From contig CAVTRY010000011.1 in NCBI GenBank assembly GCA_963737265.1, positions 480,001 to 544,000 of the forward strand: DNA of 64,000 nt, in the 5' to 3' direction. The notes beneath the pieces were generated by a model. The model made no database searches and was not told the origin of the DNA. It worked only from the letters and a program-made list of their open reading frames with translations. Shown here piece by piece: positions 47,408 through 64,000 of this stretch; the stretch's first letter is position 1; the number at the start of each line of letters is the position of its first letter. A program made the translations under genes and the position numbers. The DNA is from an uncultured delta proteobacterium (GTDB lineage: Bacteria > Myxococcota_A > Polyangia > Fen-1088).

Positions 47408-48586
47408 ATGGCCCCACGCGAAATTAAACCCGGAGTGTATTCGGTCGGCGCGATCGACTGGGATCGGCGCCTCTTCGATTCCTTGATCCCGCTGCCGCTC
47501 GGAACCAGCTACAACGCCTACCTGGTCAAAGGATCGAACAAAGTCGCCCTCATCGACACCGTCGAGCCGGCCTTGGCCAAGGATCTCTTCGCCAACCTCG
47601 ACGAGCTCGGCGTCACCAAGATCGACTACGTGGTCTGCCATCATGCCGAACAGGATCACTCGGGTAGCATTCCCGCCGTGCTTGCGCGCTACCCCGGCGC
47701 CAAGGTCGTGACCAACCAGAAATGCGCCGATCTGCTCGCCTCGCACCTGCGCGTTCCCACCGAGGCGTGCGACATCATCACCGACGGAGCCGTGCTCGAC
47801 CTCGGCGGCCGCACGCTTCAGTTCATGTTCGCGCCCTGGGTGCACTGGCCCGAGACCATGCTGAGCTTCCTGCGCGAAGACAAAATCCTCTTCACCTGCG
47901 ATTTCTTTGGCTCCCACTTCGCCACCGGCACCCTGTACGCCGACGACGAACATCACGTGTACCTCTCGGCCAAACGCTACTACGCCGAGATCATGATGCC
48001 GTTTCGACAGAAGTATCCGGCGTACCTGTTGAAGATCGATGCCATGGGTCCTGCGCTCATCGCGCCCAGCCATGGCCCAATTTATCGCCGGCCGGAGTTC
48101 ATCGTGAACGCGTACAAGGACTGGACCTCGGACAAGGTGAAGAACGAGGCGTTAGTCGCGTACGTGTCCATGCACGGCAGCACCAAGGTGATGGTCGACC
48201 GCCTGGTGGACCGTCTGGTCGCCCGCGGGGTCAACGTCAAGCAATTCGACCTAGCCACCATCGATCTCGGCGAGCTGGCCATGGCCCTGGTCGACGCCGC
48301 GACGCTGGTGCTGGCCACGCCGACGGTACTCAACGGCCCTCACCCCGCCGCCGTCTACGCCGCCTACCTGACCGGCGCCATCAAGCCCAAGCTGCGCCAC
48401 GCGGTCATCATCGGCTCGCAAGCCTGGGGCGGGAAGACCGTCGACACCCTCAAGGGCCTGCTCGCCGGCCTCAAGCTGGAAATGTTCGACCCGCTCATGA
48501 GCAAAGGCCTGCCCACCGCCGAGGATCTCGCCGCTGTCGACAAGCTGGCCGAGACGATTCAGGCGAGACACGCGGCTTTGGCGTAG
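47408..48586 (+). CDS. fprA: FprA-family flavodiiron protein
   Basis: GTSYNAY, HHAEQDHSG, HWPET, DFFG, PSHG, flavodoxin SMHGST. Confidence 0.93.
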   Translation: MAPREIKPGVYSVGAIDWDRRLFDSLIPLPLGTSYNAYLVKGSNKVALIDTVEPALAKDLFANLDELGVTKIDYVVCHHAEQDHSGSIPAVLARYPGAKVVTNQKCADLLASHLRVPTEACDIITDGAVLDLGGRTLQFMFAPWVHWPETMLSFLREDKILFTCDFFGSHFATGTLYADDEHHVYLSAKRYYAEIMMPFRQKYPAYLLKIDAMGPALIAPSHGPIYRRPEFIVNAYKDWTSDKVKNEALVAYVSMHGSTKVMVDRLVDRLVARGVNVKQFDLATIDLGELAMALVDAATLVLATPTVLNGPHPAAVYAAYLTGAIKPKLRHAVIIGSQAWGGKTVDTLKGLLAGLKLEMFDPLMSKGLPTAEDLAAVDKLAETIQARHAALA

Positions 48587-48604
48587 AGCGAGCTCGCCAT
48601 TCGA

Positions 48605-49432
48605 TCAGCGGTGGCCGCCCCCATGGCCGCCACCAAAGCCACCGTGCGAGCCGCCACCAAAGCCACCGTGCGAGCCGCCGCCGCCACCGTGAAACCCGCC
48701 GAATGAGCTAGTGCCACCGCCAGTTGCCCCGTGAAATCCTCCTCCTCCGTAGTTATGGGCGGCGACTCCACCGCGGAATCCGCCGGCCGCGTGGTATCCG
48801 CCACCAACACCGCCACGATATCCGGCTGCCGCGTGATAGCCCGCCCCGCCGCGAAATCCCCCGCCGTATCCGCCGCGAAAACCGTACCCGCCGCGATAGC
48901 CGCCGCGGTACCCGCCCCAGCCGTACCCGGCGTGGACAAGTCCGCGATACCATCCGAAGGCGAACGGACCCCGAACACCAAAGTAGGGATAAGCGCCCCA
49001 ACCCCAGATCCAGGGCGCGGCCAGCCAGGACCATCCGTAGCTCGGGTAGTACACGTAGGCGTAAGGAGACGTGTCGTAGGCGGTCCCTTCGTAGGTGTAC
49101 TGGTCTCCGTAGGGCATCCAAATCCATCCGTAGTCGGCCGTGTAAACCCACTGGCCGCCGGCTGACGTTTGGCTCGGAGCCACGGGCTGCTGCGCTTGGC
49201 GTTGCCCCTGCGCCTGAACCGGCACAGGCGGCGGCTGAAGAGGCGGCGCAGGCGGTTGCTGACTCGGCGCTGCGGTGGCCGGCTGCACATGCTGCGTCTC
49301 GGGATTCGTTTCGGAATAGGACGCCTGGCTCGGCGCGATCTCTATGAAGTCCCCAGCGGCTTGCTGGGCGCGCGCGACACCGCCCAACCCGAAGAGCAAG
49401 AAACAAAGGCTCGCAGTCAGATTCGTCTTCAT
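48605..49432 (-). CDS. Secreted protein with WVY/YGW motifs and Gly-rich tail
   Basis: Signal peptide; GQWVYTADYGWIWMPY; GGYRGG/GGSHGGFG repeats; RBS GAGGTG. Confidence 0.7.
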   Translation of the reverse strand: MKTNLTASLCFLLFGLGGVARAQQAAGDFIEIAPSQASYSETNPETQHVQPATAAPSQQPPAPPLQPPPVPVQAQGQRQAQQPVAPSQTSAGGQWVYTADYGWIWMPYGDQYTYEGTAYDTSPYAYVYYPSYGWSWLAAPWIWGWGAYPYFGVRGPFAFGWYRGLVHAGYGWGGYRGGYRGGYGFRGGYGGGFRGGAGYHAAAGYRGGVGGGYHAAGGFRGGVAAHNYGGGGFHGATGGGTSSFGGFHGGGGGSHGGFGGGSHGGFGGGHGGGHR

Positions 49433-49499
49433 GGCATCACCTCAAATTATGGATGACGACGCAGTCATTCTACTCTGCAACGTATCCAAACCATCTTGG

Positions 49500-49515
49500 T
49501 GCAATCCCCGTGCCC
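49500..49515 (-). promoter_or_regulatory. Sigma-54 (-24/-12) promoter
   Basis: GGGCACGGGGATTGCA (GG-N10-GC) upstream of the Gly-rich gene. Confidence 0.6.
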
Positions 49516-49717
49516 ATCGAACTCGTCAATTGTCCCCGATGGCGTGCGGGATGCCAGCCGATTCGGCTGACTTCCGTGGCGAGGACAGCCCGCTGTGAAT
49601 TGTCTTCACGGCAGCACGATCTTGTAGCCGCTCTGAATCATCCGGCGGTTGTGTGGTGTTCGCGGGCGGTACGCGGTGCTACATCGCGGGACGCACGTCC
49701 TGCGGTAGACTGCGCAC

Positions 49718-51064
49718 GTGGAGCCACTGAACGTCCTCATCATCGACGACGAGAAGAACATCCGTCACGCCTTGCGCGTGTGCATTGAAGCGCTGGGAGC
49801 GAAGGTCAGCGAAGCGCCCTCGGCGCAAGCAGCGCTGGATGCCATGGGCCGAACGACCTACGAAGTGGCCTTCCTTGACCTCAAGCTGGGCGTCGACAGT
49901 GGCCTCGACCTGATTCCCCAACTTCTCGCCGAGAATCCCAATCTCACCATCGTGGTCGTGACGGCCTACGCGACCATCGAGACTGCGGTCGAGGCGATGA
50001 GGCGCGGCGCCTGGGACTACCTACCCAAGCCGTTCACACCCGCGCAGATACGCCACACCTTGGATCGCATCCTCAAGCAGCACTCGCTGATGGTGCGCGC
50101 CGCCGACCTTGAAAGCCAGCTCACGGCCGAAACCCCCGACATCCTTCTCGCCTCGGCGGCCCCCTCGGTACGCGGCGTTCTCGACATCGTGGCGCGGGCT
50201 GCTCAGTCGGACGCCGCGGTACTATTTCGCGGCGAGAGCGGTACCGGGAAGGGAGTGCTCGCTCGGGCGTTGCACAAGCAAAGTAAGCGCCGCGAGCGTC
50301 CCTTCGTCTTGGTGAATTGCCCTACCCTGTCCGAGGACCTTCTCGCCAGTGAGCTCTTCGGCCACGCCAAGGGCGCCTTCACCGGCGCCATACGCGACCA
50401 AGTCGGCCGCGTGGAGGCGGCCGAGGGCGGCACGTTGTTCCTCGATGAAATCGGAGAAATGCCCGCCAATCTTCAGGCCAAGCTATTGCGCTTTCTTCAG
50501 GAAAAACAGTTCGAGCGCATCGGCGAAACCCGAACCCGCCAAGCCGACGTGCGCGTCGTCGCCGCCACCAACCGCGACTTGGATGCGGACGTGAGAAACG
50601 GCACCTTTCGCGAGGATCTGCTGTATCGCTTGAACGTGGTTGAGGTGAGGGTTCCCGCCTTGCGCGAGAGGCGCGAAGACATTCTGCCTCTGGCACGCCA
50701 TTTCTTGAGCTTCTTCGCCCGGTCGATGGGACGATCCGTTCCTGGGCTTTCGCCCGCGGCCGAGCAGGCGCTGGGAGACCACGCGTGGCCCGGCAACGTG
50801 CGCGAGCTACGCAACGCCATCGAGCGCGCCATTATCCTATGGCCGTCGCCTCGACTGGAGCCGCAAGCTTTCCCCGAACGCATCGCCGGAGCGAAAGAAC
50901 GCGGCCCGCACGTCGGCGGTGACTTCAGTGTGGAGGCCATCGAACGCGCCCACATCTTGTCCGTGATGGCGCGTGCTCCGTCGCTCGACAGCGCCGCGGC
51001 CATTCTCGGCATCGATTCATCGACCTTGTGGCGCAAGCGCAAGCGCTTCGACGAGGGTGCCTGA
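49718..51064 (+). CDS. Sigma-54-dependent response regulator (NtrC/AlgB-like)
   Basis: Receiver domain; GESGTGK, GAFTGA, LFLDEIG, WPGNVREL; Fis HTH. Confidence 0.95.
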   Translation: MEPLNVLIIDDEKNIRHALRVCIEALGAKVSEAPSAQAALDAMGRTTYEVAFLDLKLGVDSGLDLIPQLLAENPNLTIVVVTAYATIETAVEAMRRGAWDYLPKPFTPAQIRHTLDRILKQHSLMVRAADLESQLTAETPDILLASAAPSVRGVLDIVARAAQSDAAVLFRGESGTGKGVLARALHKQSKRRERPFVLVNCPTLSEDLLASELFGHAKGAFTGAIRDQVGRVEAAEGGTLFLDEIGEMPANLQAKLLRFLQEKQFERIGETRTRQADVRVVAATNRDLDADVRNGTFREDLLYRLNVVEVRVPALRERREDILPLARHFLSFFARSMGRSVPGLSPAAEQALGDHAWPGNVRELRNAIERAIILWPSPRLEPQAFPERIAGAKERGPHVGGDFSVEAIERAHILSVMARAPSLDSAAAILGIDSSTLWRKRKRFDEGA

Positions 51065-51066
51065 CC

Positions 51067-51720
51067 ATGTCGCCAACACTGCTCATGGTCGGCGTCCGCT
51101 CGCTCGGCCGATCCATTGCGCTTCATTTCGCGCGCCAGGGCTGGACCGTCCTATGTGCCGCGCTCACGCGCGCGTCCGTCGAGTCCCTCGCCGCCGAGGT
51201 TGGAAGTGCTGGCGGGACGGGAATCCCAGTGGCCTGCGACCTACGCGATCCGCAATCGCTGCGCGGGCTGCGCGACCACGAGCACATCGATCTGTGTATC
51301 GCCGCGCAGACCGCGGGCGGACGCTTCGGTCCGCGGCCGTTTCTTGACACCGACGACGTCGGGCGGAAAATGGTCGAGCAGCAGGCCGGAACATTGCTGC
51401 AGATCGGCACTTCGTCCGGTGTGCGCACGAAAGAAGGCTTCGCTCCGCTCGGGGCCGCGCAACACGCCCTGCGCGCCCTGGTCCAGGTGGCGGCGCGCGA
51501 GTGGCGAGTCCATGGCGTGCACGTGGCGTACCTACCCATCGACGGCGGCATCGAGAGCGCGCTTTCGGCAGACTGGATCGCGCGCAAAGGGGCCGACCGA
51601 GCGATTCCTCCCGACGAAATCGCTCGCGCCTGCGAGTATCTGCACCGGCAAGATCGCCGCGCCTGGACCCACGAGCTCTTGTTGCGTCCACCTGGCAGCG
51701 AATGGCTGGCGCCCACGTAG
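51067..51720 (+). CDS. Short-chain dehydrogenase/reductase (apparent internal deletion)
   Basis: LGRSIALHFA..GW, CDL, AREW..HGVHVA, AWTHEL; short between FLDTDD and VGRKM. Confidence 0.7.
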   Translation: MSPTLLMVGVRSLGRSIALHFARQGWTVLCAALTRASVESLAAEVGSAGGTGIPVACDLRDPQSLRGLRDHEHIDLCIAAQTAGGRFGPRPFLDTDDVGRKMVEQQAGTLLQIGTSSGVRTKEGFAPLGAAQHALRALVQVAAREWRVHGVHVAYLPIDGGIESALSADWIARKGADRAIPPDEIARACEYLHRQDRRAWTHELLLRPPGSEWLAPT

Positions 51721-51749
51721 GTAGGAGCCACACCCCGTTCTTAGCGCCG

Positions 51750-52355
51750 CTACTGAGCTACCGCGGTCGGATGCGAGCCTGCCTGGCCGAATTGACGGTC
51801 GAGCGCAAGGTTCAATTCGAGCACGTTGACCGTCGCCTCCCCGAGGAAGCCAAGATCGCGGCCGGAGACAGATTCTTCGACGGTCGCTCTGATGCGCGCC
51901 GGGCTCACGCCGCGCGCCCGCGCAACACGCGGCACCTGCCACATCGCGACGCTAGGGCTGATGTGTGGATCGAGCCCGCTGCCCGACGCGGTGACGAGAT
52001 CCGCGGGAACCCTTCCGGGAGCTTCGGGGTTCTCTTTTTGCAGACGGGCCAAGTCGGCCTTCACCCGGTCTTGCAGCTTCGCCGAGGTCGGGCCGAAATT
52101 CGATCCGCCCGACGCCAAGGGGTCGTAGCCGTTGCCGGCGGCGGATGGCCGTGGCTGAAAGTAGGCTGGATTCGTGAAGGTTTGACCAAGTAGGCGCGAA
52201 CCCACGACCTTTCCGCTCTCGTCGCGGACCAGGCTGCCATTGGCTGCGCTCGGGAAAAGCACCTGGGCTAAGGCCGTCATTCCCAGGGGATAGAGAATGC
52301 CCGTCAATACGATCGTAACCAGGCTGACCCGCAGAGCGACAATGAATGTCTTCAT
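51750..52355 (-). CDS. kdpC: K+-transporting ATPase subunit C
   Basis: ANGSL, YFQPRPSA, SGGSN, DLVTASGSGLDPHIS, VNVLELNLALD. Confidence 0.96.
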   Translation of the reverse strand: MKTFIVALRVSLVTIVLTGILYPLGMTALAQVLFPSAANGSLVRDESGKVVGSRLLGQTFTNPAYFQPRPSAAGNGYDPLASGGSNFGPTSAKLQDRVKADLARLQKENPEAPGRVPADLVTASGSGLDPHISPSVAMWQVPRVARARGVSPARIRATVEESVSGRDLGFLGEATVNVLELNLALDRQFGQAGSHPTAVAQ

Positions 52356-52365
52356 GATTGACTCC

Positions 52366-54420
52366 TCAGACAAGATGAAGCGCCTTGAGGGCGACATCGA
52401 CAATTTTGATACCAACGAAGGGAGCGATGATTCCGCCCAATCCATAAATGAGCATGGAACGACGGAAGAGCGCCGCCGCGCCGAGCGGCCGGTATTTCAC
52501 GCCCCGGAGTGCGAGCGGAATTAGCAATACGATAATAATGGCATTGAAAATGACGGCAGACAGAATCGCACTTGACGGTGAAGCAAGGCCCATGACGTTG
52601 AGAGGCGCGATCTCCGGGAACGCGCTCATGAACATGGCTGGAAGAATGGCGAAGTATTTGGCGACGTCATTGGCAATAGAGAAGGTCGTCAGCGCGCCAC
52701 GGGTCATCAATAGCTGCTTCCCGACTTCAACCACCTCCAACAGCTTGGTGGGATTCGAGTCGAGATCGATCATGTTGCCGGCCTCTTTCGCGGCCTGCGT
52801 CCCACTGTTCATGGCCACACCGACATCGGCTTGAGCCAGCGCAGGAGCGTCGTTGGTGCCATCGCCAGTCATGGCCACCAGCTTGCCCTTCGCCTGCTCG
52901 GTCTTGATGAGGCGCATCTTGGCTTCCGGCGTGGCTTCGGCGAGGAAGTCGTCGACGCCAGCTTCGCGCGCGATGGCCGCCGCCGTGCGCGGATTGTCGC
53001 CGGTAATCATGATGGTGCGAATGCCCATGGCGCGGAAGCGATCGAAACGCTCCTTGATGCCGCCTTTGACGACGTCGTTGAGCCGCACCACCCCGAGCAC
53101 GTTCTTGCCCTCGGCCACCGCGAGCGGCGTGGCGCCCTGATCCGCGATCTTCTGCGCCACTTCCGTCAGCGCCGCCGGTACCTCGCCGCCCATGGATTCC
53201 ACCCACGATTTGATGGCGTCCACCGCGCCCTTGCGAATCTTGCGGCCGTCGAGGTCGCAGCCACTCATGCGCGTGAGCGCCGTGAACTTCACGAATTGCG
53301 CCCCCAGCTTTTCCACGTCGCGCCCGCGCAGATTGAACTTCTCCTTCGCCAGCACCACGATGGAGCGTCCTTCGGGGGTCTCGTCGGCAAGACTGGCCAA
53401 CTGGGCGGCATCCGCCAGCGCCTCCACCGCTCCGCCGCCCACCGGAATGAATTCCGTTGCCATGCGGTTGCCGAGCGTGATGGTACCGGTCTTGTCCAGC
53501 AGCAAAGTGTCCACGTCTCCGGCGGCCTCGATGGCACGGCCGCTCATGGCGATGACGTTCTTGCGAATCAAGCGGTCCATGCCGGCGATGCCGATGGCGG
53601 ACAACAAGCCACCGATGGTGGTGGGAATGAGACAGACCAATAGTGCGACGATGACGGTCGCGGAAAGGTGGATGGACGAATACGCCGCCAGGGGTACGAG
53701 CGTCACGCAGGCAAGCAAGAAGACGATGGTCATTCCCACCAGCAGGATGTGCAGCGCAATCTCATTGGGTGTCTTCTGCCGGGTCGCCCCTTCCACGAGA
53801 GCGATCATGCGATCGAGAAAGGTATGCCCGGGGTCGGACGTGATCTTGATGACGATATGGTCCGACAGCACGCGCGTGCCGCCCGTCACCGCCGACCGGT
53901 CGCCGCCGCTTTCGCGGATGACCGGCGCGGACTCGCCAGTGATGGCCGACTCGTCCACCGAGGCAACGCCGGCGATAACCTCGCCGTCGCCCGGAATAAG
54001 CTCGCCAGCGTCAACCACGACCAAGTCGCCGGTACGCAAGGTGTCCGCGCCGACCACCTCTTCCGGTCCGTTGCGTGTCTTGAGCCGACGGGCGGAGGTT
54101 TGCGTGCGCATCTTGCGCAAGCTCGCGGCCTGCGCCTTGCCCCGTCCTTCGGCCACGGCCTCGGCCAGGTTGGCGAACACCACCGTAAACCACAGCCAAA
54201 GGGAAATGCTGATGGTAAACCAAAGCGGTGCCGACTGCGCGGTCGGCGCAATCGCATCGCGCAGGGCCACCAAGGTGGTGAGGACGCTGCCGATCTCGAC
54301 CACGAACATGACGGGATTGCGGATGACCTTGGTGGGAGAGAGTTTGCGCACGCTCTCCCACGCGGCCTCCTTGAGGATTTTGCTATCGAACAGGGCGACG
54401 GCTTGGGCTTGCGAACGCAT
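52366..54420 (-). CDS. kdpB: K+-transporting ATPase subunit B
   Basis: [31 protein letters not shown]. Confidence 0.98.
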
Positions 54421-56147
54421 TAGAATACCTTTCCGGCCAGTGCGACGAAGTGCTCGGCGACTGGACCAAGCGACAGTGCGGGGAAGAAGGTCAGCGCGCC
54501 GACAATGAGGATGACCGACACGAGCAGACCCGAAAACAGAACACCGTGGGTGGGAAAGGTTCCGGGACCGGCCGGTACGGTTCGTTTACCACGCATGGAG
54601 CCGGCGATGGCCATCACAGGAATCATCATGAAGAAGCGGCCAAACAGCATGGACAGGCCGAGTGTTGTATTCCACCACGGCGTGTTGGCATTGAGTCCGG
54701 CGAAGGCCGAGCCGTTATTGCCAGTGGCGCTGGCGTAGGCGTAGAGAATTTCGGACAACCCGTGCGGCCCCGCATTGTTGAGCGACGAGGTACCATAACC
54801 TGCAACCGAGGACCACGCCGAGAAGCCCAAGATGATAAGTGGAAAAATGAGGATGTAGAGCATGGCCAGCTTCATTTCCTTGCCTTCGATCTTCTTGCCC
54901 AAATACTCGGGCGTGCGGCCCACCATCAAGCCGGCAATGAACACCGACATCAGCACGAACATCAACATGCCGAACAGGCCAGCACCCACGCCGCCGAAGA
55001 CAACCTCGCCGAGCTTGATATTGATGAGCGGCACCATGCCGCCTAACGGATTGAAGCTGTCGTGCATGGAATTGACGGCCCCGCACGAGGTTCCGGTCGT
55101 GACCGTCGCCCACAAGACGGAGTTCGCCACGCCAAAGCGGGTTTCCTTTCCCTCCATGTTGCCGAGTCCGTGGTCCAGTTGGAACGCAGACAGAGCTGCA
55201 TTGGGCTGCGCTTCGGATGCATAGGCAGTGGTGATACCGGCGACCACTAGGACGGTCATGGCGGTGAGAATGGCCCAGCCTTGTTTCTGGTTTCCGGCCA
55301 TGCGGCCAAAGGTGTAGGTCAGCGCAGCGGGGATGCAGAGCAATAGCAGCATCTCGATAAAGTTGATGAGAGGTGTCGGGTTCTCGAAGGGATGCGCGCT
55401 GTTGGCATTGAAGAAGCCGCCGCCGTTGGTGCCGAGCTCCTTAATCACCTCCTGCGAGGCAACCGGGCCGAGCGGAATAACCTGCGCCGCTCCCTCCAGA
55501 GTCGTTACGTGATGGTATCCAGCGAAGGTCTGCACCACCCCTTGCGAGACCAGCAGTAGCGTGAAGATCACACTGATGGGGAGCAGCACGTACACGATGG
55601 AGCGAATCAGATCGACCGAGAAGTTTCCGACGGTCTGGTCGCCCTTTTCATCCGGCTTGCGGGTTAGCCCGCGCGCCAAGGCCAGCGCGACACCCAAACC
55701 AGCGGCGGCGGAGGTGAAGTTGTGCCAGGCCAGCCCCGCCATCTGGGTGAGATAGCTCATCGTCGTCTCGCCCGAGTAGGATTGCCAGTTGGTATTGGTA
55801 TTGAAGCTGACCGCCGTGTTAAAGGCGAGGTGCTCGGCCGGCGCCGCCAGCTTTTCGGGGTTGAAAGGCAGCACATGCTGCAAGCGCTGGATGAGATAGG
55901 TAACCAAGATGCCGATGACGCTGAATACAAGCAGCGCCGCCGTGTATTGCTTCCAGTTTTGCCCCGCAGGCTGTTTGAGGCCACTTAGACGTAGGAGAAA
56001 CCTCTCGCACGCGCCGAGGGTGCGGCGAAAAGGCTGCCGTTCACCTTCGAAGACGCTGTGAAGATAGATTCCGAGAGGTTTGGTGATGGCGAGAATCACC
56101 GCGAGAAAGAATGCAATCTGAAGCCAACCGTTCGCTGTCATGGACAT
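54420..56147 (-). CDS. kdpA: K+-transporting ATPase subunit A
   Basis: [34 protein letters not shown]. Confidence 0.98.
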
Positions 56148-56156
56148 TGGACAACC

Positions 56157-56246
56157 TCAAAAACGCTCTGGTTTAACCAGGGCGTAGACCAGGTACGCGG
56201 CGAGCGCCGCCGCAAGGATCGCGCCCAGTGCATAGTCGAGACTCAT
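56157..56246 (-). CDS. kdpF: K+-transporting ATPase subunit F
   Basis: MSLDYALGAILAAALAAYLVYALVKPERF; RBS AAGGAG. Confidence 0.9.
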   Translation of the reverse strand: MSLDYALGAILAAALAAYLVYALVKPERF

Positions 56247-56260
56247 GGTGGTTCTCCTTG

Positions 56261-56344
56261 TTAGAGTCGTTCGCAGGCCTTGGTGTAAAGCCAAGACACA
56301 GCAAAGAAGCCGACCGTGATGAAGCAGAAAAGTAGATCTTTCAT
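56261..56344 (-). CDS. 27-aa membrane peptide upstream of kdpF
   Basis: MKDLLFCFITVGFFAVSWLYTKACERL. Confidence 0.7.
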   Translation of the reverse strand: MKDLLFCFITVGFFAVSWLYTKACERL

Positions 56345-56365
56345 GGCGTCTGAACAGCTTCGTAG

Positions 56366-56381
56366 AGCATGGGCTGTGCCA
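56366..56381 (-). promoter_or_regulatory. Sigma-54 promoter of the kdp operon
   Basis: TGGCACAGCCCATGCT (GG-N10-GC), 22 nt before the first ATG. Confidence 0.7.
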
Positions 56382-56593
56382 GAAGGCGCCCAAGAGTCGA
56401 CGCGGAAGTTCCGGCACGAACCCGAACGTCGGGTTGCAAAGAGAAACAATGAGCACACTGAAGGTTGTAAAATGCAGGCTCGCCGGTCGCGGCGCGGCAG
56501 GAGAACAATGGTAATTCCCCCTAAGATACGAGTCCTCCGATGCGTGCCCTTGGCCCCTCGCTTGCTACACCCGATGCCTAGGATGCCCGAAAC

Positions 56594-57757
56594 ATGACCA
56601 CTCCCCCCCCGCGGCCTCGCGCCGAGGACTTTCTTGAGCTGGTTCAGAAAAGCAAGCGCGGGCGACTGAAGCTCTATATCGGCTTTGCCGCGGGCGTGGG
56701 CAAAACGTACAGAATGCTCGAAGAGGCGCACGCCCTCAAGCAGCGTGGGGTGGATGTTGTGATCGGGTTCATCGAAACCCATGGACGCGCCGAAACCGCG
56801 GCTCTGGTCGATGGGCTTGAAAGCGTGCCCCTGCGTCAGGTCGAATACCGCGGTGTCGTGATCGAGGAAATGAACCTGAACCAGATCCTCAAACGCAACC
56901 CCGCGGTCGCCCTCGTCGACGAGCTGGCGCACAGCAATCCGCCCGGCAGCCGCAACAAACGCCGCTACCTCGATGTTCTAGAATTGCTCAACGCTGGCAT
57001 CAACGTCATCGGGGCGTTCAATGTCCAACACCTGGAGAGCCTCAACGACCTGGTCGAACGGGTGACTGGCGTGGTGGTGCGCGAGACCGTCCCGGACAGT
57101 TTTCTCAAGCAAGCCGATCAGGTGGTCAACCTCGACCTCACCGTCGAGGATCTGCAAGAACGGTTGCGGGCAGGGAAAATCTATCCTTTGGACCGCATTC
57201 CCTGGGCGCTCGAGCATTTCTTTCAAGAAAACAACCTCGCGCATTTGCGCGAGCTCGCCCTGCGCGAAGTGGCGGAGAGCATCGAACGCGCCACGATCAC
57301 TCGCCCCATGGCGGCCGACGGCAGCGGCGCCGTGCCGGCGTCCACGCGCAGCCGCGTGATGGTTTGCGTGTCGTCGGGCTCGCCGCGCACGCCCATGCTG
57401 GTGCGGCGGGGCTCACGCATGGCGGGCCGATTCAACACCGACTGGTTCGTGGTCTTCGTCGAGACACCGGGGGAAGCGCCCGACCAGATCGACGCCGAAC
57501 TGCAGCGCCACTTGTTCGCCAACATCGAAAAGGCCAAGGAGCTCGGCGCCGAAACCGTGCGCATCAAGAGCAAAGATCCCGTGGCGGGAATCCTCGACTT
57601 CGCCCAGTCGCACAACGTCGGACACATCGTGGTTGGGCGCTCGCAGCAGCCGTGGTGGAAACAGTTGCTCGGCCGCTCGGTACCGCTGCGGCTGGTACGC
57701 GAGGCCGCGCAGTTCGACCTTCACATCATTTCGCACGAAGACGAGGTGACCGGATGA
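56594..57757 (+). CDS. Stand-alone KdpD N-terminal domain + USP domain
   Basis: GRLKLYIGFAAGVGKTYRML, ETHGRAET, VDELAH, NVQHLESLND, LRELALR; no TM or HisKA. Confidence 0.92.
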   Translation: MTTPPPRPRAEDFLELVQKSKRGRLKLYIGFAAGVGKTYRMLEEAHALKQRGVDVVIGFIETHGRAETAALVDGLESVPLRQVEYRGVVIEEMNLNQILKRNPAVALVDELAHSNPPGSRNKRRYLDVLELLNAGINVIGAFNVQHLESLNDLVERVTGVVVRETVPDSFLKQADQVVNLDLTVEDLQERLRAGKIYPLDRIPWALEHFFQENNLAHLRELALREVAESIERATITRPMAADGSGAVPASTRSRVMVCVSSGSPRTPMLVRRGSRMAGRFNTDWFVVFVETPGEAPDQIDAELQRHLFANIEKAKELGAETVRIKSKDPVAGILDFAQSHNVGHIVVGRSQQPWWKQLLGRSVPLRLVREAAQFDLHIISHEDEVTG

Positions 57758-59610
57758 CCTTCAAGAGCAAGCTCATGCTCACCATGGCGCCGCTGGTCCT
57801 GGCACTAGCCGCGGTCGGCATCGTCTCGGGCATGGTCGCCAGCATTCTTGCCCGTCAACCGGCACACATTTGGAAGGATAACTACCGCAGCGTTCTGGCG
57901 GGCCAGCGCATGAAGGAGATTATCGAGCGCATCGACGAGTCCGCTCTTCTCAAGCTCTTGCGGCCCGAACAAGCCGTGCTGCCCATGCTCAACTATCACG
58001 ACCAGTTCGACCGCGAGCTTGCCGCCGAGGCGGGCAACATCACCGAAATAGGAGAGGACGAAGCCGTGGCCAAGCTCCGCGCCAGTTGGGCGGAGTACCA
58101 ACGGGTTCTGGCGCAATTTCATGCGGAGCCGGACACTGCCAATCGTCGCGCGATCTGTTTCGGTCCGCTGCACGCTGCCTTCACCAAGGTCAAACACGCG
58201 GCCGACGAGATCCTCGACATCAACCAAGATGCGATGGTGCGCAAGGGCCAGCGGACCGAGCGACGTGCCGCCCGCTTCGAACATGTGCTCACCGTGGCTG
58301 TTCTGGTGGCTTCGGTGCTCGGCCTTTTGGCATCGGTCAGCCTTACCACCCGGTTGCTGCGTCCGCTCGGCGTCGTGTCGGCGGCGGTGCGACGTTTCGG
58401 GCAAGGCGACACGCAGGCGCGCGCACGTGTGCAAGGCGAAGACGATATCGCCCAGCTCGCACAGGAATTCAATACCATGGCGGATCACCTGGAACGCTAT
58501 CGCAAAAGCTCGCTCGGCGAGCTGTTGCAAGCGCAGCAGGCGTCGCAGGCCGCCATCGATAGCCTGCCCGATCCAGTGCTGATGTTGGATGCGATGGGAA
58601 ACCTGCAAGGCACCAACCAGGCGTCCAGACAGTGGTTGAACATCGACCCCGAGGAATCCGGCAGCGGCTCGCTCGACCATGCGGATCCCGGCGTGCGCTC
58701 GCTGCTGGATCGACTACGCGCCCACGTCGTGGGTGGCCGCGGCGCCTACAGTCCCAAGGGTTTCGAGGACGCTCTGCGGGTGACCACTCCCGAGGGCGAG
58801 CGCATCTATCTTCCCCGCGCCACGCCCATTTACGGCGAGAATGGCAGCGTCACGGGCACCGCCCTGGTTCTGCAGGACATCACCCGCCTGTTTCGCTTCG
58901 ACGAGCTCAAGAACAATTTGGTCGCCACCGTGGCGCATGAATTCCGCACTCCGCTGACGTCGTTGCGCATGGCCATTCACCTGTGCACCGACGAGACCGT
59001 GGGCCCACTCACCACCAAGCAGGCGGATCTGCTGTTCGCGGCCCGCGACGACTGCGAACGGTTGCAGGGTATCGTCGATGACCTGCTCAATCTGTCGCGC
59101 CTCGAATCGGGACGCATCGATCTGCAGAAGCGCAGGGTCGAGCCCAAGTCGCTGGTCGACCTGGCCGTCGACGTGCACAGCGCCGCCGCCGCAAACAAAC
59201 AGATCGCGCTCCGCTCCGAAATCTATCCCGGCTTGGCCGAGACCTTCGCCGATTCGGATCGCCTGCAATTGGTATTCACCAATCTCATCACCAACGCGCT
59301 TCGCTATTCGCCGGCTGGAAGCGAAATCGTGGTGCGCGCCGTGGCCGAGACCGACGGCTCCCCGGCGGACGGCTTCGTTCGTTTCGAGGTTGTCGACCAC
59401 GGACCGGGCATACCCGCCGAACACCAGGAGTCCCTGTTCGAAAAATTCTTTCGTGTCCCCGGCAGCCCCGCCGGCGGCGCCGGGCTTGGCCTTTTCATCG
59501 CACGCGGGATCGTGCAGGCGCACGGTGGTCGCATCGGCATCACCAGCGAACCCGAACGAGGCGCGACCTTCTGGTTCACGATTCCGACGGCGCCCGACCG
59601 GCCGGCCTAG
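57754..59610 (+). CDS. Sensor histidine kinase (periplasmic four-helix, HAMP, PAS, HisKA, HATPase; KinB-like)
   Basis: NYRSV, AHEFRTPLTS, NLITNALRYS, DHGPGI, GAGLGL. Confidence 0.92.
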   Translation: MTFKSKLMLTMAPLVLALAAVGIVSGMVASILARQPAHIWKDNYRSVLAGQRMKEIIERIDESALLKLLRPEQAVLPMLNYHDQFDRELAAEAGNITEIGEDEAVAKLRASWAEYQRVLAQFHAEPDTANRRAICFGPLHAAFTKVKHAADEILDINQDAMVRKGQRTERRAARFEHVLTVAVLVASVLGLLASVSLTTRLLRPLGVVSAAVRRFGQGDTQARARVQGEDDIAQLAQEFNTMADHLERYRKSSLGELLQAQQASQAAIDSLPDPVLMLDAMGNLQGTNQASRQWLNIDPEESGSGSLDHADPGVRSLLDRLRAHVVGGRGAYSPKGFEDALRVTTPEGERIYLPRATPIYGENGSVTGTALVLQDITRLFRFDELKNNLVATVAHEFRTPLTSLRMAIHLCTDETVGPLTTKQADLLFAARDDCERLQGIVDDLLNLSRLESGRIDLQKRRVEPKSLVDLAVDVHSAAAANKQIALRSEIYPGLAETFADSDRLQLVFTNLITNALRYSPAGSEIVVRAVAETDGSPADGFVRFEVVDHGPGIPAEHQESLFEKFFRVPGSPAGGAGLGLFIARGIVQAHGGRIGITSEPERGATFWFTIPTAPDRPA

Positions 59611-59795
59611 CTAGGCTCACGGCTTGGCGCCCACACCCCCTGACGAGAGCGCACCTCCAGGCGCTCCCGTGCTGATGAGTCGGAGAAAACTCCAGCCGAA
59701 AGACCCCTGAATTTCTCGATTGTGGCGTAGATACGCGACCGCCGACGTGCAAAGTGCATTCTGGCCGGTTCGCAAGGCTTGCGGTTCGCGACAGG

Positions 59796-59811
59796 TGGCC
59801 CCGCCCATGCA
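59796..59811 (+). promoter_or_regulatory. Sigma-54-type promoter
   Basis: TGGCCCCGCCCATGCA (GG-N10-GC), 13/16 identical to the kdp promoter. Confidence 0.5.
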
Positions 59812-59839
59812 CGTAGCGTAGTTACAGCGAGGTTGTCAG

Positions 59840-60235
59840 ATGAAAAGCCTGGATGTTAACGATCGTCTCGACCAGTACCTCATTACCGACGTGTTGGCAG
59901 TGACCATCACCGCGACGGTGTTCAAGGGACGCGACTCGGAGACCGGTCGCTTCGTGTGCATCAAGGTCCAGAACCTGCAGTGCGAGGGCGACCCCGCGTT
60001 TCGCGAGAGGTTCGCGCGCGAGGCGAGGATTCTCGGTCGGCTGGAGCACCCGAACATCGTCTGTACTGTCGAGCCGCGCGTCACGAGCTGCCTTTTCCTC
60101 GTAACCGAGCTCGTGGAAGGCCAGTCGCTCCGTGCCTTGCTTGCTGCGGGGCCATTGCGCGAGGAGCGGGCCGTGAGCATCGCCGTTCCACGCTACGTCG
60201 AATTGGGTACATCCCGGCCCATACCTGCGGCATAG
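59840..60235 (+). pseudogene. Truncated Ser/Thr kinase (N-lobe only)
   Basis: VCIKV, RFAREARIL..LEHPNIV, LVTELVEGQSL; no HRD or DFG. Confidence 0.65.
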
Positions 60236-60284
60236 TGCCACCCGCCCGCCAATTCTGGCGGTCGATTAGCTCCGGAAAGACAAC

Positions 60285-61223
60285 ATGAGGACCAAGACCA
60301 GCGCCGAAAGTGTCCCTTGGCTGATTGCGGGGGTTGTGTTCCTCGCCCTGCTTCTCCTTGTCGTCTGGCATTTTCGCCAAGATGCGAGCCCCGCCCAGCA
60401 ACTCGCCGCCAAGGCCAGCCGGGTCGATCTCGTCGGACGAATGCAACTCGATCTCGCCTCGGCCGCGGAGTCGGAAAAGAGCGCCGTCCTCGCCATCACC
60501 GACGAGGATTCGCAAAAATTCGCCGACCAGGCCCGGGCGGCGGCGGCGGAGGTCGAGCGGGAACGACAGGAGCTCGCCGCTCTCCTCGCCACCGGAGGAA
60601 CCCAACCCGAACGAGATCTGCTGGCCCAATTTTCCCAGGCCTTCGCCAATCTTCAGCATGTCGACAGCGAGGTGCTGGCCCTGGCGGTGAAGAACACCAA
60701 CCTCAAGGCTTACAGTCTGCTCTTTGGCCCGGCCGCGGACACTCTGGCGGAGATGGATGCCGCGCTCGCCCGCGTCGTGGCGACTGTCGCCGACGCGGCG
60801 GACGCCAAGCGCGTAATGCTCATGGCCTTTGGCGCCCGCCTTGGGGTCCTGCGCATCCAGACCCTGCTTGCGCCGCATATCGCCGAGGAAAGCGATGCGA
60901 AGATGGATCAAATGGAAGCGTCGATGGCCAAGGAGGAGGCGAACATCCGCAAGGATCTCGATGGCCTCGCGGCGCTGCCCAAGCTCGCCAGGGACGCCGA
61001 CCTGGCGACGGCGGCGGCAAGCTTCGGCCGTTATACCGAGATCAAAGCCCGGATCCTGCCGCTCTCGCGCGAGAATACCAACGTCCGGTCGCTGTCCCTG
61101 TCGCTCAATCAGAAGCGCAAGGCGATGCTGGTCTGCTTGGGCGCGCTTGGCTCGCTAAAGCAAGCCATCCTCGACGAGCCGATCGCGGGCATCACCTACG
61201 GCCGGCCAGCCAGACCGCGGTAG
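60285..61223 (+). CDS. Membrane-anchored four-helix-bundle sensor-like protein
   Basis: Single N-terminal TM; EKSAVLAITD, NTNLKAY, ENTNVRSL; no signalling domain. Confidence 0.65.
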   Translation: MRTKTSAESVPWLIAGVVFLALLLLVVWHFRQDASPAQQLAAKASRVDLVGRMQLDLASAAESEKSAVLAITDEDSQKFADQARAAAAEVERERQELAALLATGGTQPERDLLAQFSQAFANLQHVDSEVLALAVKNTNLKAYSLLFGPAADTLAEMDAALARVVATVADAADAKRVMLMAFGARLGVLRIQTLLAPHIAEESDAKMDQMEASMAKEEANIRKDLDGLAALPKLARDADLATAAASFGRYTEIKARILPLSRENTNVRSLSLSLNQKRKAMLVCLGALGSLKQAILDEPIAGITYGRPARPR

Positions 61224-61366
61224 GCTGCGCGCACAATTGGCGATTTTTGCGGTGACTTTGTGCTTCATCGTGGAAGGTTTGGGACGTCCACCTACGTTGT
61301 CGGATGGACTCGTGTGTCTTTGAGCCAACCTTTTCCCCGAATGGTCCACCAATTGATGAGGTTCCG

Positions 61367-62707
61367 ATGAAGTGTTCGTTGTGCTGTCGTTCAAGTCTTT
61401 GGGCCGGCGCTGCATTGGCCACTCTGCTCGCGGCCAGTTGCACATCGAACACCGCCAGCATCACCGGTACCGGTGGCGCGACTGCATCAGGGGGAGGAAG
61501 CGGCGGCGGTGCTGGCGGGCAACTTCTCGGATCCGGTGGAGCGACTTCGTCTGGCGGAACCGCCGCGAGCACGAGAGGAGGCAATGGCAGCGGGGGAAAG
61601 AGTGGCACCGCGGGAGCGACGGGCAACGGCGGGGCGTCAGCCGCCGGGGGCATGACCGCCGCCGGGGGCGCGGCGGCTGCGAGCGGAGGAGCGGGCTTGG
61701 CCACTGGCGGCAAAGCCGGAACCGGCGGGGCCGGTCGCGGCGGCTCGACGGGTGCAGGCGGCATGATATCGGCTGGCGGCGCAACCGGCACCGGGAACGC
61801 TGGCGGTACGGGAACGACGTGTCCATTGCCGAAGACCTTCAAATGGACATCGACGGGCCCGCTCGCGACGCCACAGAACGGGTCGCTCGCGCTCAAGGAC
61901 TTCACCAACGTCGTCTACAATAGCCAGCACATCGTCTACTTCACGACGGTCGGTAGTTCAGGGAACTGGGGCGGCGGCATGGTGACTTTCGCCGATTGGC
62001 CTGACATGGCCACGGCCACCCAGCACGCGTTGCCCATGGGATCCGTTGCGCCGACCCTGATCTATTTCACCCCGAAGAGCACATGGGTGCTGACCTACCA
62101 GTGGGGCTTCCAGTACGCGACATCGTCCGACCCCACGGACCCGACGAAGTGGTCGGGCGGCAAGACGCTCCTCAACGGCGGCCCACCGACTGCCCTCGAC
62201 CAAACGTTCATCTGCGACGGCACGACCTGTTATCTATTCTTCGCCGGGGACAACGGCAGCATCTATCGGTCATCGATGCCAATCGGCAATTATCCGGGCA
62301 CCTTCAACGGCTACCAGACGGTCATGACCGACACCGCGGCCAACCTGTTCGAGGCGGTGGAGGTCTACACGGTGAAGGGGGCGAACCAGTATCTTTTGAT
62401 TATCGAGGCGGCGGGCAGTGCAGGAAGGTATTTCCGATCCTTTACCGCGACCGATCTCGCAGGTTCGTGGACTCCGCTGGCAGCGACCGAGAGCAATCCG
62501 TTCGCCGGCAAGGCCAATGTCACCTTCACCGGCGCGGCCTGGACCCATGACATCAGCCACGGGGACCTGGTTCGCAACAATCCCGACGAGACGCAGACTG
62601 TCGACCCGTGCAATTTGCAATTTCTCTATCAGGGGGACGCCCCCACGTCTGGTCTTCAATACTTCCAGGTCCCGTACCGCCCGGGCGTGCTCACGCTCGT
62701 TCAATAG
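61367..62707 (+). CDS. GH62 alpha-L-arabinofuranosidase, lipoprotein with Gly-rich linker
   Basis: FKWTSTGPL, LKDFT, APTLIYF, YLFFAGDNG, LFEAVEVY, DISHGDLVR, LQFLYQG, PYRPGVLTL. Confidence 0.92.
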   Translation: MKCSLCCRSSLWAGAALATLLAASCTSNTASITGTGGATASGGGSGGGAGGQLLGSGGATSSGGTAASTRGGNGSGGKSGTAGATGNGGASAAGGMTAAGGAAAASGGAGLATGGKAGTGGAGRGGSTGAGGMISAGGATGTGNAGGTGTTCPLPKTFKWTSTGPLATPQNGSLALKDFTNVVYNSQHIVYFTTVGSSGNWGGGMVTFADWPDMATATQHALPMGSVAPTLIYFTPKSTWVLTYQWGFQYATSSDPTDPTKWSGGKTLLNGGPPTALDQTFICDGTTCYLFFAGDNGSIYRSSMPIGNYPGTFNGYQTVMTDTAANLFEAVEVYTVKGANQYLLIIEAAGSAGRYFRSFTATDLAGSWTPLAATESNPFAGKANVTFTGAAWTHDISHGDLVRNNPDETQTVDPCNLQFLYQGDAPTSGLQYFQVPYRPGVLTLVQ

Positions 62708-62923
62708 TGGGTCCTGGCCACCGAGGAATGGAGGAGCTAGATGAACCGTTGGATCCACGCCCCAGCCCGGCGCCTTGCGCACAGACTCCAAAGAAAGGAC
62801 CCTGGGAGGGTTCTTTCAAACTCCCGCAGTAAGTGCAGTCGGGCGAGGCCCGCCTGCACTCGCGCGCTCTGCGACGGCAGCACCACCCCGTCGGCGGTCA
62901 TCTCGGCCTTGCCACGGATTCGG

Positions 62924-64000
62924 GTGCGCAACTTCAGGTTGGCAGGACTGCCGTTGTCGGTCGCGGCAGCGTTGCTGATGATCTGCGGATGCGGTTCGTC
63001 CAACAATGATGCCCACAACGCGGGGGGCGGAGGGACGGCTGGAAGTGGCGGTGCCGGCGCAATTGGCACCGGCGGTGGGAGTGGCGCTGCAGGCACGGGC
63101 GGCAGTGCAAGCGTGGGCGGTAGCGTGGGCACGGGTGGCGTCGCAGCTGCGGGCGGGACGCCAGCCGCGGGCGGCGCAACGGCGACGGGCGGCGCAGGCA
63201 CGGGTGGCCGTGCAAGCACCGGCGGAGCCGTAGGTACGGGCGGCGCAGGCACTGGCGGCGGCGCAAGCACAGGCGGAGTGCCAGGCACGGGCGGCGCAGG
63301 CACCGGCGGCGGCGCAGGCACCGGCGGCGGCGCAAGCACAGGCGGAGCGCCGGGCGCGGGCGGCGCAGGCACCGGCGGCGGCACAAGCACAGGCGGAGCG
63401 CCAGGCGCGGACGGAGCCGGGGGCGCTCCAGACCCGGCCCTCGAAACGATTGTGGTGCCAGGAGGCACCGGAGTCGGAGTCTCCAAGACCTCGCTCGACA
63501 ATGGCGAGCTTTTCTTGCTTCGCGCGAGCGGCACCGTCGATTTCGGTGGGACGACGATAGATGCGGAGTTCGGCGGTTTTGCCACCGGCACGGACGGCAC
63601 CGATTCCGTCGGGAACGTCGACGTGGGCGTTGATTTCGGGCTCCAGACCGTTCGCTCGGCGGTGACCCCCCCTACTGTCCCACGCATGAAGTGGTTCGGC
63701 GCCTATCGCAGCGACCATGTCTACTACATCATTGTGAACGGAGTAGGTAAACCGCTTTCTCTCAAGCTGCTCCCGCCTACGGCAACGGCCGGATCGGGCG
63801 GCATCACGATATCGCTTTATCGGCTTTCACCCACGCTGCAGACCGTCGGGAAGGTGGTCGACACAGTGATGGCTCCGCTGACCGAGACGACGGTCAAGAG
63901 CGCCATCTCAACGACCCAAAGCACGCTCTACCTCCTGCAATGCAATGGCGAGGGCGCTGTCAGCCCGTGGGGACCGGGCGACGCCGACTATATGGACTAT
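62924..64000 (+). CDS. Lipoprotein with Gly/Ala/Thr repeat linker, runs off window
   Basis: Leader ...LLMICGC; GGAGTGGGASTGG repeats at about 63180-63425; frame open to the end; alternative start at 62741. Confidence 0.7.
   Translation, partial: MRNFRLAGLPLSVAAALLMICGCGSSNNDAHNAGGGGTAGSGGAGAIGTGGGSGAAGTGGSASVGGSVGTGGVAAAGGTPAAGGATATGGAGTGGRASTGGAVGTGGAGTGGGASTGGVPGTGGAGTGGGAGTGGGASTGGAPGAGGAGTGGGTSTGGAPGADGAGGAPDPALETIVVPGGTGVGVSKTSLDNGELFLLRASGTVDFGGTTIDAEFGGFATGTDGTDSVGNVDVGVDFGLQTVRSAVTPPTVPRMKWFGAYRSDHVYYIIVNGVGKPLSLKLLPPTATAGSGGITISLYRLSPTLQTVGKVVDTVMAPLTETTVKSAISTTQSTLYLLQCNGEGAVSPWGPGDADYMDY

Follow-up and report, generated by a model that had tools for sequence, protein, structure and literature searches.

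Probable sigma-54-dependent control of the Kdp potassium pump by an NtrC-type regulator in a myxobacterial locus

Introduction

Regulation of the Kdp potassium pump is commonly taught in terms of KdpD and KdpE acting with sigma-70. The closest described exception to this scheme is that of Desulfovibrio vulgaris Hildenborough, where DVU3334, a regulator dependent on sigma-54, acts on the operon in which it is itself encoded, kdpFABC included, according to passages of Rajeev et al. (2011; PMC3333781). The kinase is described there as split into DVU3336, which consists of the KdpD N-terminal domain (KdpD-N) plus Usp, and DVU3335. In the same passages, a DVU3334 motif (CGTTACATTTTGTAACG) is placed at -149 of kdpF, a sigma-54 promoter of kdpF (GTGGCACGTCAAATGCT) is predicted at -44 (Table S10), a motif is given for DVU3305 (GTTGCAAAATGCAAC), and three regulators of this organism are stated to target kdp. 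DVU3334, which carries the GAFTGA sequence, is also listed as a potassium-uptake regulator in passages of Kazakov et al. (2015; PMC4641369). The present work concerns a kdp locus that occupies positions 49718-59610 of a 64,000-nucleotide stretch of bacterial DNA (contig CAVTRY010000011.1, positions 480001-544000; referred to below as the window), for which control by sigma-54 and by an NtrC-type regulator encoded at 49718-51064 is, taken as a whole, quite probably the best explanation.

Work on KdpD itself is also relevant to this locus. In passages of Silberberg et al. (2024; PMC11018627), the KdpD N-terminal domain is described as an atypical serine kinase that phosphorylates the serine of the TGES motif in KdpB, proteins consisting only of KdpD and Usp parts are reported mainly from species without KdpE, where they act post-translationally, and one such protein is reported to be controlled by cyclic di-AMP (c-di-AMP). 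The KdpD-N and Usp domains of Escherichia coli are stated there to modulate the histidine kinase.

For myxobacteria, no paper on sigma-54 control of kdp was found in a literature that was largely without subscription journals. Passages of a Myxococcus xanthus transcriptome paper assume KdpDE (PMC5857379), in those of another study the only tie between kdp and sigma-54 is an indirect one, by way of the PTS-Ntr system (PMC3162934), a kdpD/kdpE pair is described in passages of a third (PMC10599522), and the words "kdp" and "potassium" do not occur in PMC12316311. In what these latter studies say about kdp, no activator dependent on sigma-54 is placed at its promoter. An initial annotation of the window had proposed a Kdp pump under sigma-54 and without KdpE, and the features that it listed were all found where it had placed them. 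The novelty that it implied was overstated, the design having been published, in the passages cited above, for D. vulgaris DVU3334-DVU3339.1 (PMC3333781; PMC4641369).

A conserved predicted sigma-54 promoter upstream of the kdp operon

The comparative set on which the conservation counts are based consists of 80 related loci, gathered with KdpD-N as query. By their record titles most of these are Myxococcota (Polyangia, Kofleriaceae, Myxococcaceae, Archangiaceae, and Anaeromyxobacter), and a few bear Binatia or Pirellulales labels. Since the nearest relatives in this set are 89% identical, the organism of the window is, judged by sequence, a myxobacterium, and it probably belongs to the class Polyangia. 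Its genome (6.55 Mb, completeness 99.5%) holds a single rpoN, represented by one Sigma54_DBD match of 217 bits (contig C12, 190318-190794).

Ahead of the pump operon, a -24/-12 element of the form TGGCAC-N5-ATGCT (TGGCACagcccATGCT) is present on the minus strand at 56366-56381 (read from 56381 to 56366). It has one mismatch to the pattern TGGCAC-N5-TTGCW, and the GG/GC spacing is exact. As the GC of the -12 part lies at 56368-56367, transcription of the operon is predicted to start near 56355. This promoter, which had been proposed in the initial annotation, is credible because of its position and its conservation across relatives, and not on the window match alone. When the 500 nt before kdpA were searched in the 55 usable loci, with GG and GC fixed and at most two mismatches allowed, a sigma-54 element was found in 36 of them, compared to about 0.06 expected per region, given that such elements occur at 0.127 per kb in the locus sequence as a whole. 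The distance from the element to kdpA is mostly 199-260 nt among the loci, and it is 234 nt in the window. Additionally, when the window was aligned with 12 loci, 12 of the 13 rows shared an aligned TGGCAC-N5-(A/T)TGCT block, and the sequence further upstream was unalignable. The promoter, whose conservation in homologous loci had been proposed as a check, is thus seen among the relatives, as is the linkage of the activator gene to kdp described below. No riboswitch or other known RNA was detected at E <= 1 in 48000-61000.

The loci without a promoter match include those of the Myxococcaceae/Archangiaceae type, which were missed because an additional gene heads the operon. A sigma-54 element (TGGTACggcggGTGCT) was found upstream of this head gene in three of the eight such loci that were checked, and a perfect palindrome of the kind described below lies 55-75 nt above in four of them (the same three and L076).

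The head gene of these loci encodes an OmpL-like beta-barrel porin (BBP2), and it directly precedes the small reading frame and the kdpFABC genes described below. The BBP2 match has an E-value of 8.4e-70 in L092 (4239-5387) and of 2e-73 in L074 (3751-4971), and it is also present in L076, L077, L084, L088, and L090. This porin may provide an outer-membrane route of K+ entry that is co-regulated with the pump.

Paired palindromes upstream of the promoter

The region above the promoter contains a second conserved element. A search for the palindrome TGCA-N3-TGCA, allowing at most one mismatch, in the 200 nt upstream of the promoter in 36 regions identified 54 sites, which were distributed over 31 of these regions. 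Their density of 7.66 per kb is 25-fold that in all locus sequence (0.30 per kb). With other spacers (2, 4, or 5 nt) the density was only 0.71-0.85 per kb against backgrounds of 0.18-0.48, which is far below the excess for N3. A spacer of 4 nt was rejected, as it matches only six of the 36 regions and N3 fits instead. In 14 loci the palindromes occur as pairs that are 31-32 bp, or three helical turns, apart, and their commonest positions are at about -95 and about -64 from the -24 element.

The window shows the same arrangement. The distal predicted upstream activator site (UAS1; 56466-56476, TGTAAAATGCA on the plus strand), which has one mismatch, occupies the position most frequent among the loci (-95 relative to the -24 element), and the proximal one (UAS2; 56435-56445, TGCAAAGAGAA on the plus strand) lies at -64, 31 bp from UAS1. 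The right half of UAS2 is degenerate, and the whole of this site is identical in the close relative L014. The GGTTGYAAA repeats that had been noted as candidate enhancer elements (GGTTGCAAA at 56432-56440 and GGTTGTAAA at 56463-56471) are the left halves of UAS2 and UAS1, respectively, together with their flanks; they are real, being the window's copies of the conserved palindrome pair. A weight matrix for the palindrome that was built without the window, L014, and L053 ranks the site at 56462-56480, which corresponds to UAS1, fourth among all positions of the window. An inverted repeat that abuts UAS2 (AACCCGAcgtTCGGGTT, 56418-56434; arms AACCCGA and TCGGGTT around the spacer cgt) was also considered, and it is probably due to chance because it is not kept in L014, the closest relative.

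Two other matches to this matrix were observed in the window. The top one (62605-62623, TGCAATTTGCA, score 19.3) lies in the 3' end of a gene for a GH62 glycosyl hydrolase (61304-62707), about 120 nt before an open reading frame (ORF) without family assignment (62741-64000, plus strand), and no sigma-54 element with up to two mismatches is found near it. The other (59744-59762) contains a perfect TGCA-N3-TGCA and is located 34 nt before a sigma-54-like sequence with two mismatches (TGGCCCcgcccATGCA, 59796-59811, plus strand). This combination (59744-59811) lies just downstream of the kinase gene of the locus and ahead of a 131-aa ORF (59840-60235), in which a protein kinase domain (Pkinase, 3.6e-09) is represented by its N-terminal part only and which is possibly a gene fragment.

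The NtrC-type regulator and the search for KdpE

The gene at 49718-51064 (plus strand) encodes an NtrC-type response regulator, i.e. an enhancer-binding protein, with REC, Sigma54_activat (PF00158, 4e-67), AAA lid, and HTH_8 domains in Pfam, and with the GAFTGA loop at residue 219. The conserved linkage of this gene suggests that its product most likely activates kdp. In 62 of the 80 loci an ortholog, at 55-89% identity, is encoded no more than 10 kb from kdpD-N; the other enhancer-binding proteins in the related loci are 33-45% identical to it, and the best paralog in the window's own genome, among 40 matches, shows 46% identity. Moreover, the linkage between this gene and kdp holds through three different gene orders. 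In the first of these, the arrangement is divergent, as in the window; in the second, the regulator gene lies behind the kinase gene in convergent orientation, the other genes running kdpABC-kdpD-N-kinase; and in the third, kdpABC, the regulator, kdpD-N, and the kinase follow one another on a single strand.

The initial annotation had described a GAFTGA activator on the other flank of the kdp genes. The activator is present there, but it is not adjacent to kdp, since an SDR-like ORF (51067-51720, plus strand) intervenes and the two are convergent. This ORF lies directly 3' of the activator gene; its NCBIfam SDR matches are weak, no counterpart of it appears in any printed row of the related-locus maps, and it is probably outside the circuit.

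Upstream of the activator gene itself, sigma-54 elements were found in only three of 58 regions and palindromes in 10 of 58, and the window has neither. As few relatives carry such sites, and the window none, autoregulation of the activator appears to vary between genomes. In L014 a pair of TGCA-N3-TGCA sites is located 73 and 104 nt before the start of the activator gene, sites paired at 31-32 bp are also seen at L046 and L017, and the latter carries a sigma-54 element as well. On the far side of the activator gene in the window, a third sigma-54-like element (GGGCACggggaTTGCA, 49500-49515, minus strand) is present 68 nt before a 275-aa ORF (48605-49432, minus strand) that is divergent from the activator gene, belongs to no Pfam or NCBIfam family, and has no match in the maps of the 80 loci.

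In agreement with the initial annotation, no OmpR-type regulator is encoded in the window: the sole Trans_reg_C match on the contig is at C11:621947, outside 480001-544000. The genome as a whole contains 11 Trans_reg_C matches, of which 10 were scanned, the 11th, in a 1033-aa frame on contig C7, being left out. No KdpE-grade regulator was found among these 10 proteins; the best score with NF007820 was 165.7 bits compared to a cut-off of 325, and KdpE was never the top family.

The sensor genes and their candidate promoter

Two genes on the plus strand, divergent from the pump operon on the minus strand, encode the putative sensory proteins. The first of these (56594-57757) specifies a stand-alone cytoplasmic KdpD-N/Usp protein of 387 aa (PF02702, 4e-92, plus Usp) with no predicted transmembrane (TM) segment, and it accounts for the only KdpD-N domain in the genome. 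The score of this protein is 378 bits with NF038185 ("KdpD-like non-kinase potassium sensor"; cut-off 550) and 359.9 bits with the full-length KdpD family NF007793 (cut-off 1123). Residues G30, G36, K37, T38, D109, E110, and R190 are invariant in 76 KdpD-N sequences, and they include the Walker A motif G-X5-GKT (G30-X5-G36 K37 T38) and Walker B (D109/E110). Position 39 is a Tyr and not the Trp of the adenine-binding W/R pair. Because the serine-kinase residues of KdpD are kept, the role that can be assigned most securely to this protein is that it would shut the pump by phosphorylating KdpB, the putative target being Ser164 of the TGES motif (161-164). Its control by c-di-AMP is possible, since the genome encodes two diadenylate cyclase domains.

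The second gene (57754-59610) encodes a sensor histidine kinase of 618 aa, in which a TM segment (5-23), a predicted periplasmic four-helix bundle, a further TM segment (173-191), HAMP, PAS_4, HisKA (His395), and HATPase_c follow one another. No match to DUF4118 or GAF was found in this protein, and because these parts, which make up the TM/GAF region of KdpD, are absent, it is a four-helix-bundle/HAMP/PAS kinase and not the C-terminal half of KdpD; to speak of a split KdpD, as had been done for the window, is imprecise. The sensor region has no family-level sequence match. In a structural model of residues 1-200 (pLDDT 89.5), which is all-helical, the two TM helices flank a periplasmic bundle, and there is no PDB match to it at E <= 0.001. 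The closest structure, that of the KinB sensor domain (4llc_A), matches weakly (14% identity at E 4.6e-3; the TM-score, normalized by target length, is 0.75), and the label "KinB-like" that this kinase had been given is reasonable to that extent. The invariant residues of the bundle are N43, S46, N95, E98, E101, N157, and D159.

The start codon of the kinase gene overlaps the stop codon of kdpD-N in ATGA. Upstream of this gene pair, a second sigma-54-like -24/-12 element (TGGCCC-N5-TTGCT, TGGCCCctcgcTTGCT; 56551-56566, plus strand) is present 43 nt before the kdpD-N ATG. Twelve loci have an equivalent of this element 31-58 nt ahead of kdpD-N, and the loci classed as carrying kdpD-N on the strand of kdpC and downstream of it are not among them. 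Because UAS1 and UAS2 both lie between the two divergent promoters, the arrangement suggests a positive feedback on the sensor genes via shared upstream sites.

The pump genes and a conserved small reading frame ahead of kdpF

The genes for the pump are all on the minus strand. They comprise kdpF (56157-56246; 29 aa, TIGR02115 36.4 bits with cut-off 26.85, PF09604 1.5e-09), kdpA (54420-56147; PF03814, 1.4e-241), kdpB, encoding the P-type ATPase subunit (52366-54420; in addition to TGES, DKTGT at 309 and GDGTND at 519), and kdpC (51750-52358; PF02669 1.2e-72, NF001454 231.5 bits with cut-off 178). The first cistron after the promoter is none of these, but a conserved and unannotated frame of 27 codons with one hydrophobic helix (56261-56344), which we will refer to as ORF X. 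In 41 of the 80 loci kdpF is preceded by a counterpart that is 26-28 codons long and follows the same pattern, some positions being fixed by the regular expression used to find it, and the consensus of these is M-x-D-L-V-F-V-x-V-T-x-x-F-F-A-x-A-W-x-Y-x-x-x-C-D-R-L. In the 33 copies of exactly 27 codons, the entropies at the three codon positions (0.96/0.71/1.28) and a third-position GC content of 85% provide a coding signature. No Pfam or NCBIfam family was found for ORF X, and none of seven versions of it occurs in a collection of 15 billion proteins. That it is a paralog of KdpF was considered and rejected (hhalign probability 0.1). Its leader measures only about 11 nt from the predicted transcription start, and in some relatives there is almost none. 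It is possible that ORF X encodes a leader peptide or an additional small subunit of Kdp.

Proposed mechanism and alternative explanations

From the gene content of the locus, its motifs, and their conservation we infer the signal and the order of binding and phosphorylation as follows. Low K+ would be sensed by the kinase at 57754-59610 via its periplasmic bundle and/or its PAS domain, and the kinase, to judge by linkage, would phosphorylate the NtrC-type regulator. Given the conserved motifs and what has been described for D. vulgaris, the phosphorylated regulator is expected to assemble on the two palindromes at 56466-56476 and 56435-56445, where it would use ATP to open the sigma-54 polymerase complex at both divergent promoters, whose motifs are conserved. 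Transcription of the co-translated kdpD-N and kinase genes from the promoter at 56551-56566, which shares these upstream sites, would produce a positive feedback, and the KdpD-N/Usp protein, with its conserved catalytic residues, would serve as an off-switch that acts on Ser164 of KdpB.

Several observations weigh against this explanation. The promoter match in the window is by itself not above chance, as there are three matches with up to one mismatch compared to 2.12 expected, and 33 of 100 shuffles reach three; among the relatives, no element was found at the threshold used in 19 of the 55 loci. The palindrome is absent from five of the 36 promoter-upstream regions, and UAS2 of the window carries two mismatches to it. 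Nor is it exclusive to kdp, since the weight matrix scores two other positions of the window (62605 and 59744) more highly, and similar sites may be used by further enhancer-binding proteins from the 40 matches in the genome, the published DVU3305 motif being one such case. Lastly, 18 of the 80 loci have no activator within 10 kb, and although most of these are short contigs, at least three (L026, L031, and L040) lack it despite full flanks; the activator gene of the window is oriented convergently to kdp, from which the SDR-like gene separates it.

Of the three-component circuit for K+ acting through sigma-54 that the initial annotation had proposed, the part that concerns sigma-54/NtrC-type control without KdpE is supported, as the promoter, the palindromes, and the linkage are all conserved, whereas for a KdpD-N/Usp protein that feeds the kinase the available indication is gene adjacency. 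In a true circuit of this type, KdpD-N/Usp would act as a sensor of intracellular K+ (or c-di-AMP), bind to the HAMP/PAS kinase, and be needed for the induction of kdp, the two proteins being in effect one KdpD cut in two. This is possible, though we rather doubt it. The kinase gene follows kdpD-N in 75 of the 80 loci, often with overlapping or nearly touching reading frames, the corresponding D. vulgaris proteins DVU3336 and DVU3335 are read as a split kinase in passages of Rajeev et al. (2011), and the modulation of the histidine kinase by the KdpD-N and Usp domains of E. coli, as described in passages of PMC11018627, points in the same direction. However, because the kinase has a predicted periplasmic four-helix bundle and a PAS domain of its own, and lacks the TM/GAF part of KdpD, it can sense without KdpD-N; the invariant serine-kinase residues of KdpD-N alone explain its retention and its co-expression with the pump; and the KdpD/Usp-only proteins described in those passages act post-translationally. 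A prediction of a complex between KdpD-N/Usp and residues 195-618 of the kinase, both supplied as alignments, gave 0.07 against a mark of 0.32, which speaks neither for nor against binding.

It is also conceivable, but improbable, that the sigma-54 promoter is real and is driven by some other enhancer-binding protein, the regulator at 49718-51064 controlling something else, such as the SDR-like gene. The genome offers 40 matches to enhancer-binding proteins from which such an activator could come, and the separation of the window's regulator from kdp, its convergent orientation, and its absence within 10 kb in the 18 loci mentioned above would all fit this possibility, as would the three regulators that target kdp in D. 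vulgaris according to passages of PMC3333781 and the agreement of TGCA-N3-TGCA with the DVU3305 motif (GTTGCAAAATGCAAC) given there. It is opposed by the orthologs of 55-89% identity that lie beside kdp in 62 loci in three gene orders, including one in which they are inside the operon, by the paralogs being at most 46% identical, and by the SDR-like gene not being conserved next to the regulator. A coincidental -24/-12 match, with transcription of kdp by way of sigma-70 under another regulator, can be regarded as highly improbable: although the window holds little more than the expected number of such matches and no search for sigma-70 promoters was made, 36 of 55 loci retain the element in both its sequence and its placement, the paired palindromes lie at fixed distances from it, and the 10 Trans_reg_C proteins scanned, out of 11, include no KdpE-grade regulator.

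Control by sigma-54 and the NtrC-type regulator could also be part of a more elaborate circuit, which is speculative and which we consider unlikely in its entirety. In such a circuit KdpD-N/Usp would have a dual output, so that at high K+ or c-di-AMP it would both phosphorylate Ser164 of KdpB and dock on the kinase, quenching sigma-54 transcription. The four-helix bundle would read external K+, and the circuit would combine K+ inside and outside the cell on an all-or-none promoter with positive feedback, with ORF X serving as a lineage-specific fifth small subunit or assembly factor.

The sigma-54 Kdp logic, made up of the promoter, the palindrome pair, the NtrC-type regulator, the four-helix-bundle/HAMP/PAS kinase, and a KdpD-N/Usp protein on its own, is the conserved state in the sampled relatives, which are mostly Myxococcota with a few loci labelled Binatia or Pirellulales. 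A single published case, that of D. vulgaris, is thereby extended to a family with defined cis-elements, which can be used for annotation and for the prediction of regulons. The locus also provides a natural system in which the serine-kinase module of KdpD is physically apart from histidine-kinase signalling, so that the two roles are separable for study, and ORF X ahead of kdpF represents a testable addition to the list of pump parts.

Comparison with known systems

With the canonical KdpD/KdpE system of E. coli, the locus has in common the kdpFABC pump, the KdpD-N/Usp module, and the TGES serine of KdpB. It differs from it in that no full-length KdpD chain (KdpD-N, Usp, four TM segments, GAF, HisKA, HATPase) and no KdpE-grade OmpR regulator are present, the output here being through a sigma-54 promoter and an AAA+ activator. 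The kinase of the locus resembles KinB-type kinases such as Pseudomonas aeruginosa KinB (PDB 4llc) in its HAMP, PAS, and kinase core, and its modelled periplasmic bundle has the KinB sensor as its best, though weak, PDB match. Pairing with a regulator of the NtrC family is predicted here, and KinB itself partners the NtrC-family regulator AlgB.

The stand-alone KdpD/Usp serine kinases described in passages of Silberberg et al. (2024; PMC11018627), including KdpD of Deinococcus geothermalis, are similar to the protein encoded in the window in consisting of KdpD and Usp only, in keeping the Walker A and B motifs and R190, and in the absence of KdpE. They differ from it in that Tyr39 is found here in place of Trp, and in that the protein is here coupled translationally to a histidine kinase and belongs with a dedicated sigma-54 two-component system. 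The combination of a stand-alone KdpD/Usp protein with sigma-54 two-component control is not described in those passages.

The design of the locus matches that of the D. vulgaris DVU3334-DVU3339.1 system, as published, by gene set and domains, by the ATGCT-type -12 element, and by the architecture of the palindrome. The published D. vulgaris 18-mer, when used as a query, retrieved 121 unrelated stretches, and kdp genes were present in none of the 80 of these loci that were fetched; similarly, this 18-mer combined with the promoter 17-mer at a gap of 75-105 gave no match. One of the retrieved stretches, on an Acidobacteriaceae contig (L163:10001-10056), contains two exact copies of the 18-mer, which is the DVU3334 site, 38 bp apart, with no kdp genes within 10 kb; another enhancer-binding protein may use the two copies as a paired site.

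To judge by the published passages (PMC3333781; PMC4641369), the features shared by the two systems are an NtrC-type regulator with GAFTGA, KdpD-N plus Usp on an ORF of its own, a histidine kinase with a PAS domain ("sensory box") that is encoded apart from it, a -12 element of the ATGCT type in the sigma-54 promoter that precedes kdpF, and a palindromic site made up of 4-nt half-sites, a 3-nt spacer, and GTT/AAC flanks (TTACA-TTT-TGTAA in D. vulgaris). The half-sites themselves differ, being TACA in the D. vulgaris motif CGTTACATTTTGTAACG and TGCA here, and TGCA fits the DVU3305 motif GTTGCAAAATGCAAC at least as well. The gene order is also different: DVU3334-3339 are described as a single operon, whereas in the window the sensor genes are divergent with a sigma-54-like promoter of their own, and the regulator is convergent behind the SDR-like gene. 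Furthermore, no small ORF before kdpF is named in the operon list of D. vulgaris (rows of Table S5 in PMC3333781), and ORF X is present here. The sigma-54/NtrC-type Kdp design is known from that system, and what the locus described here adds to it is a cis layout that is defined and widely conserved, a further promoter in divergent orientation, and a small ORF without annotation.

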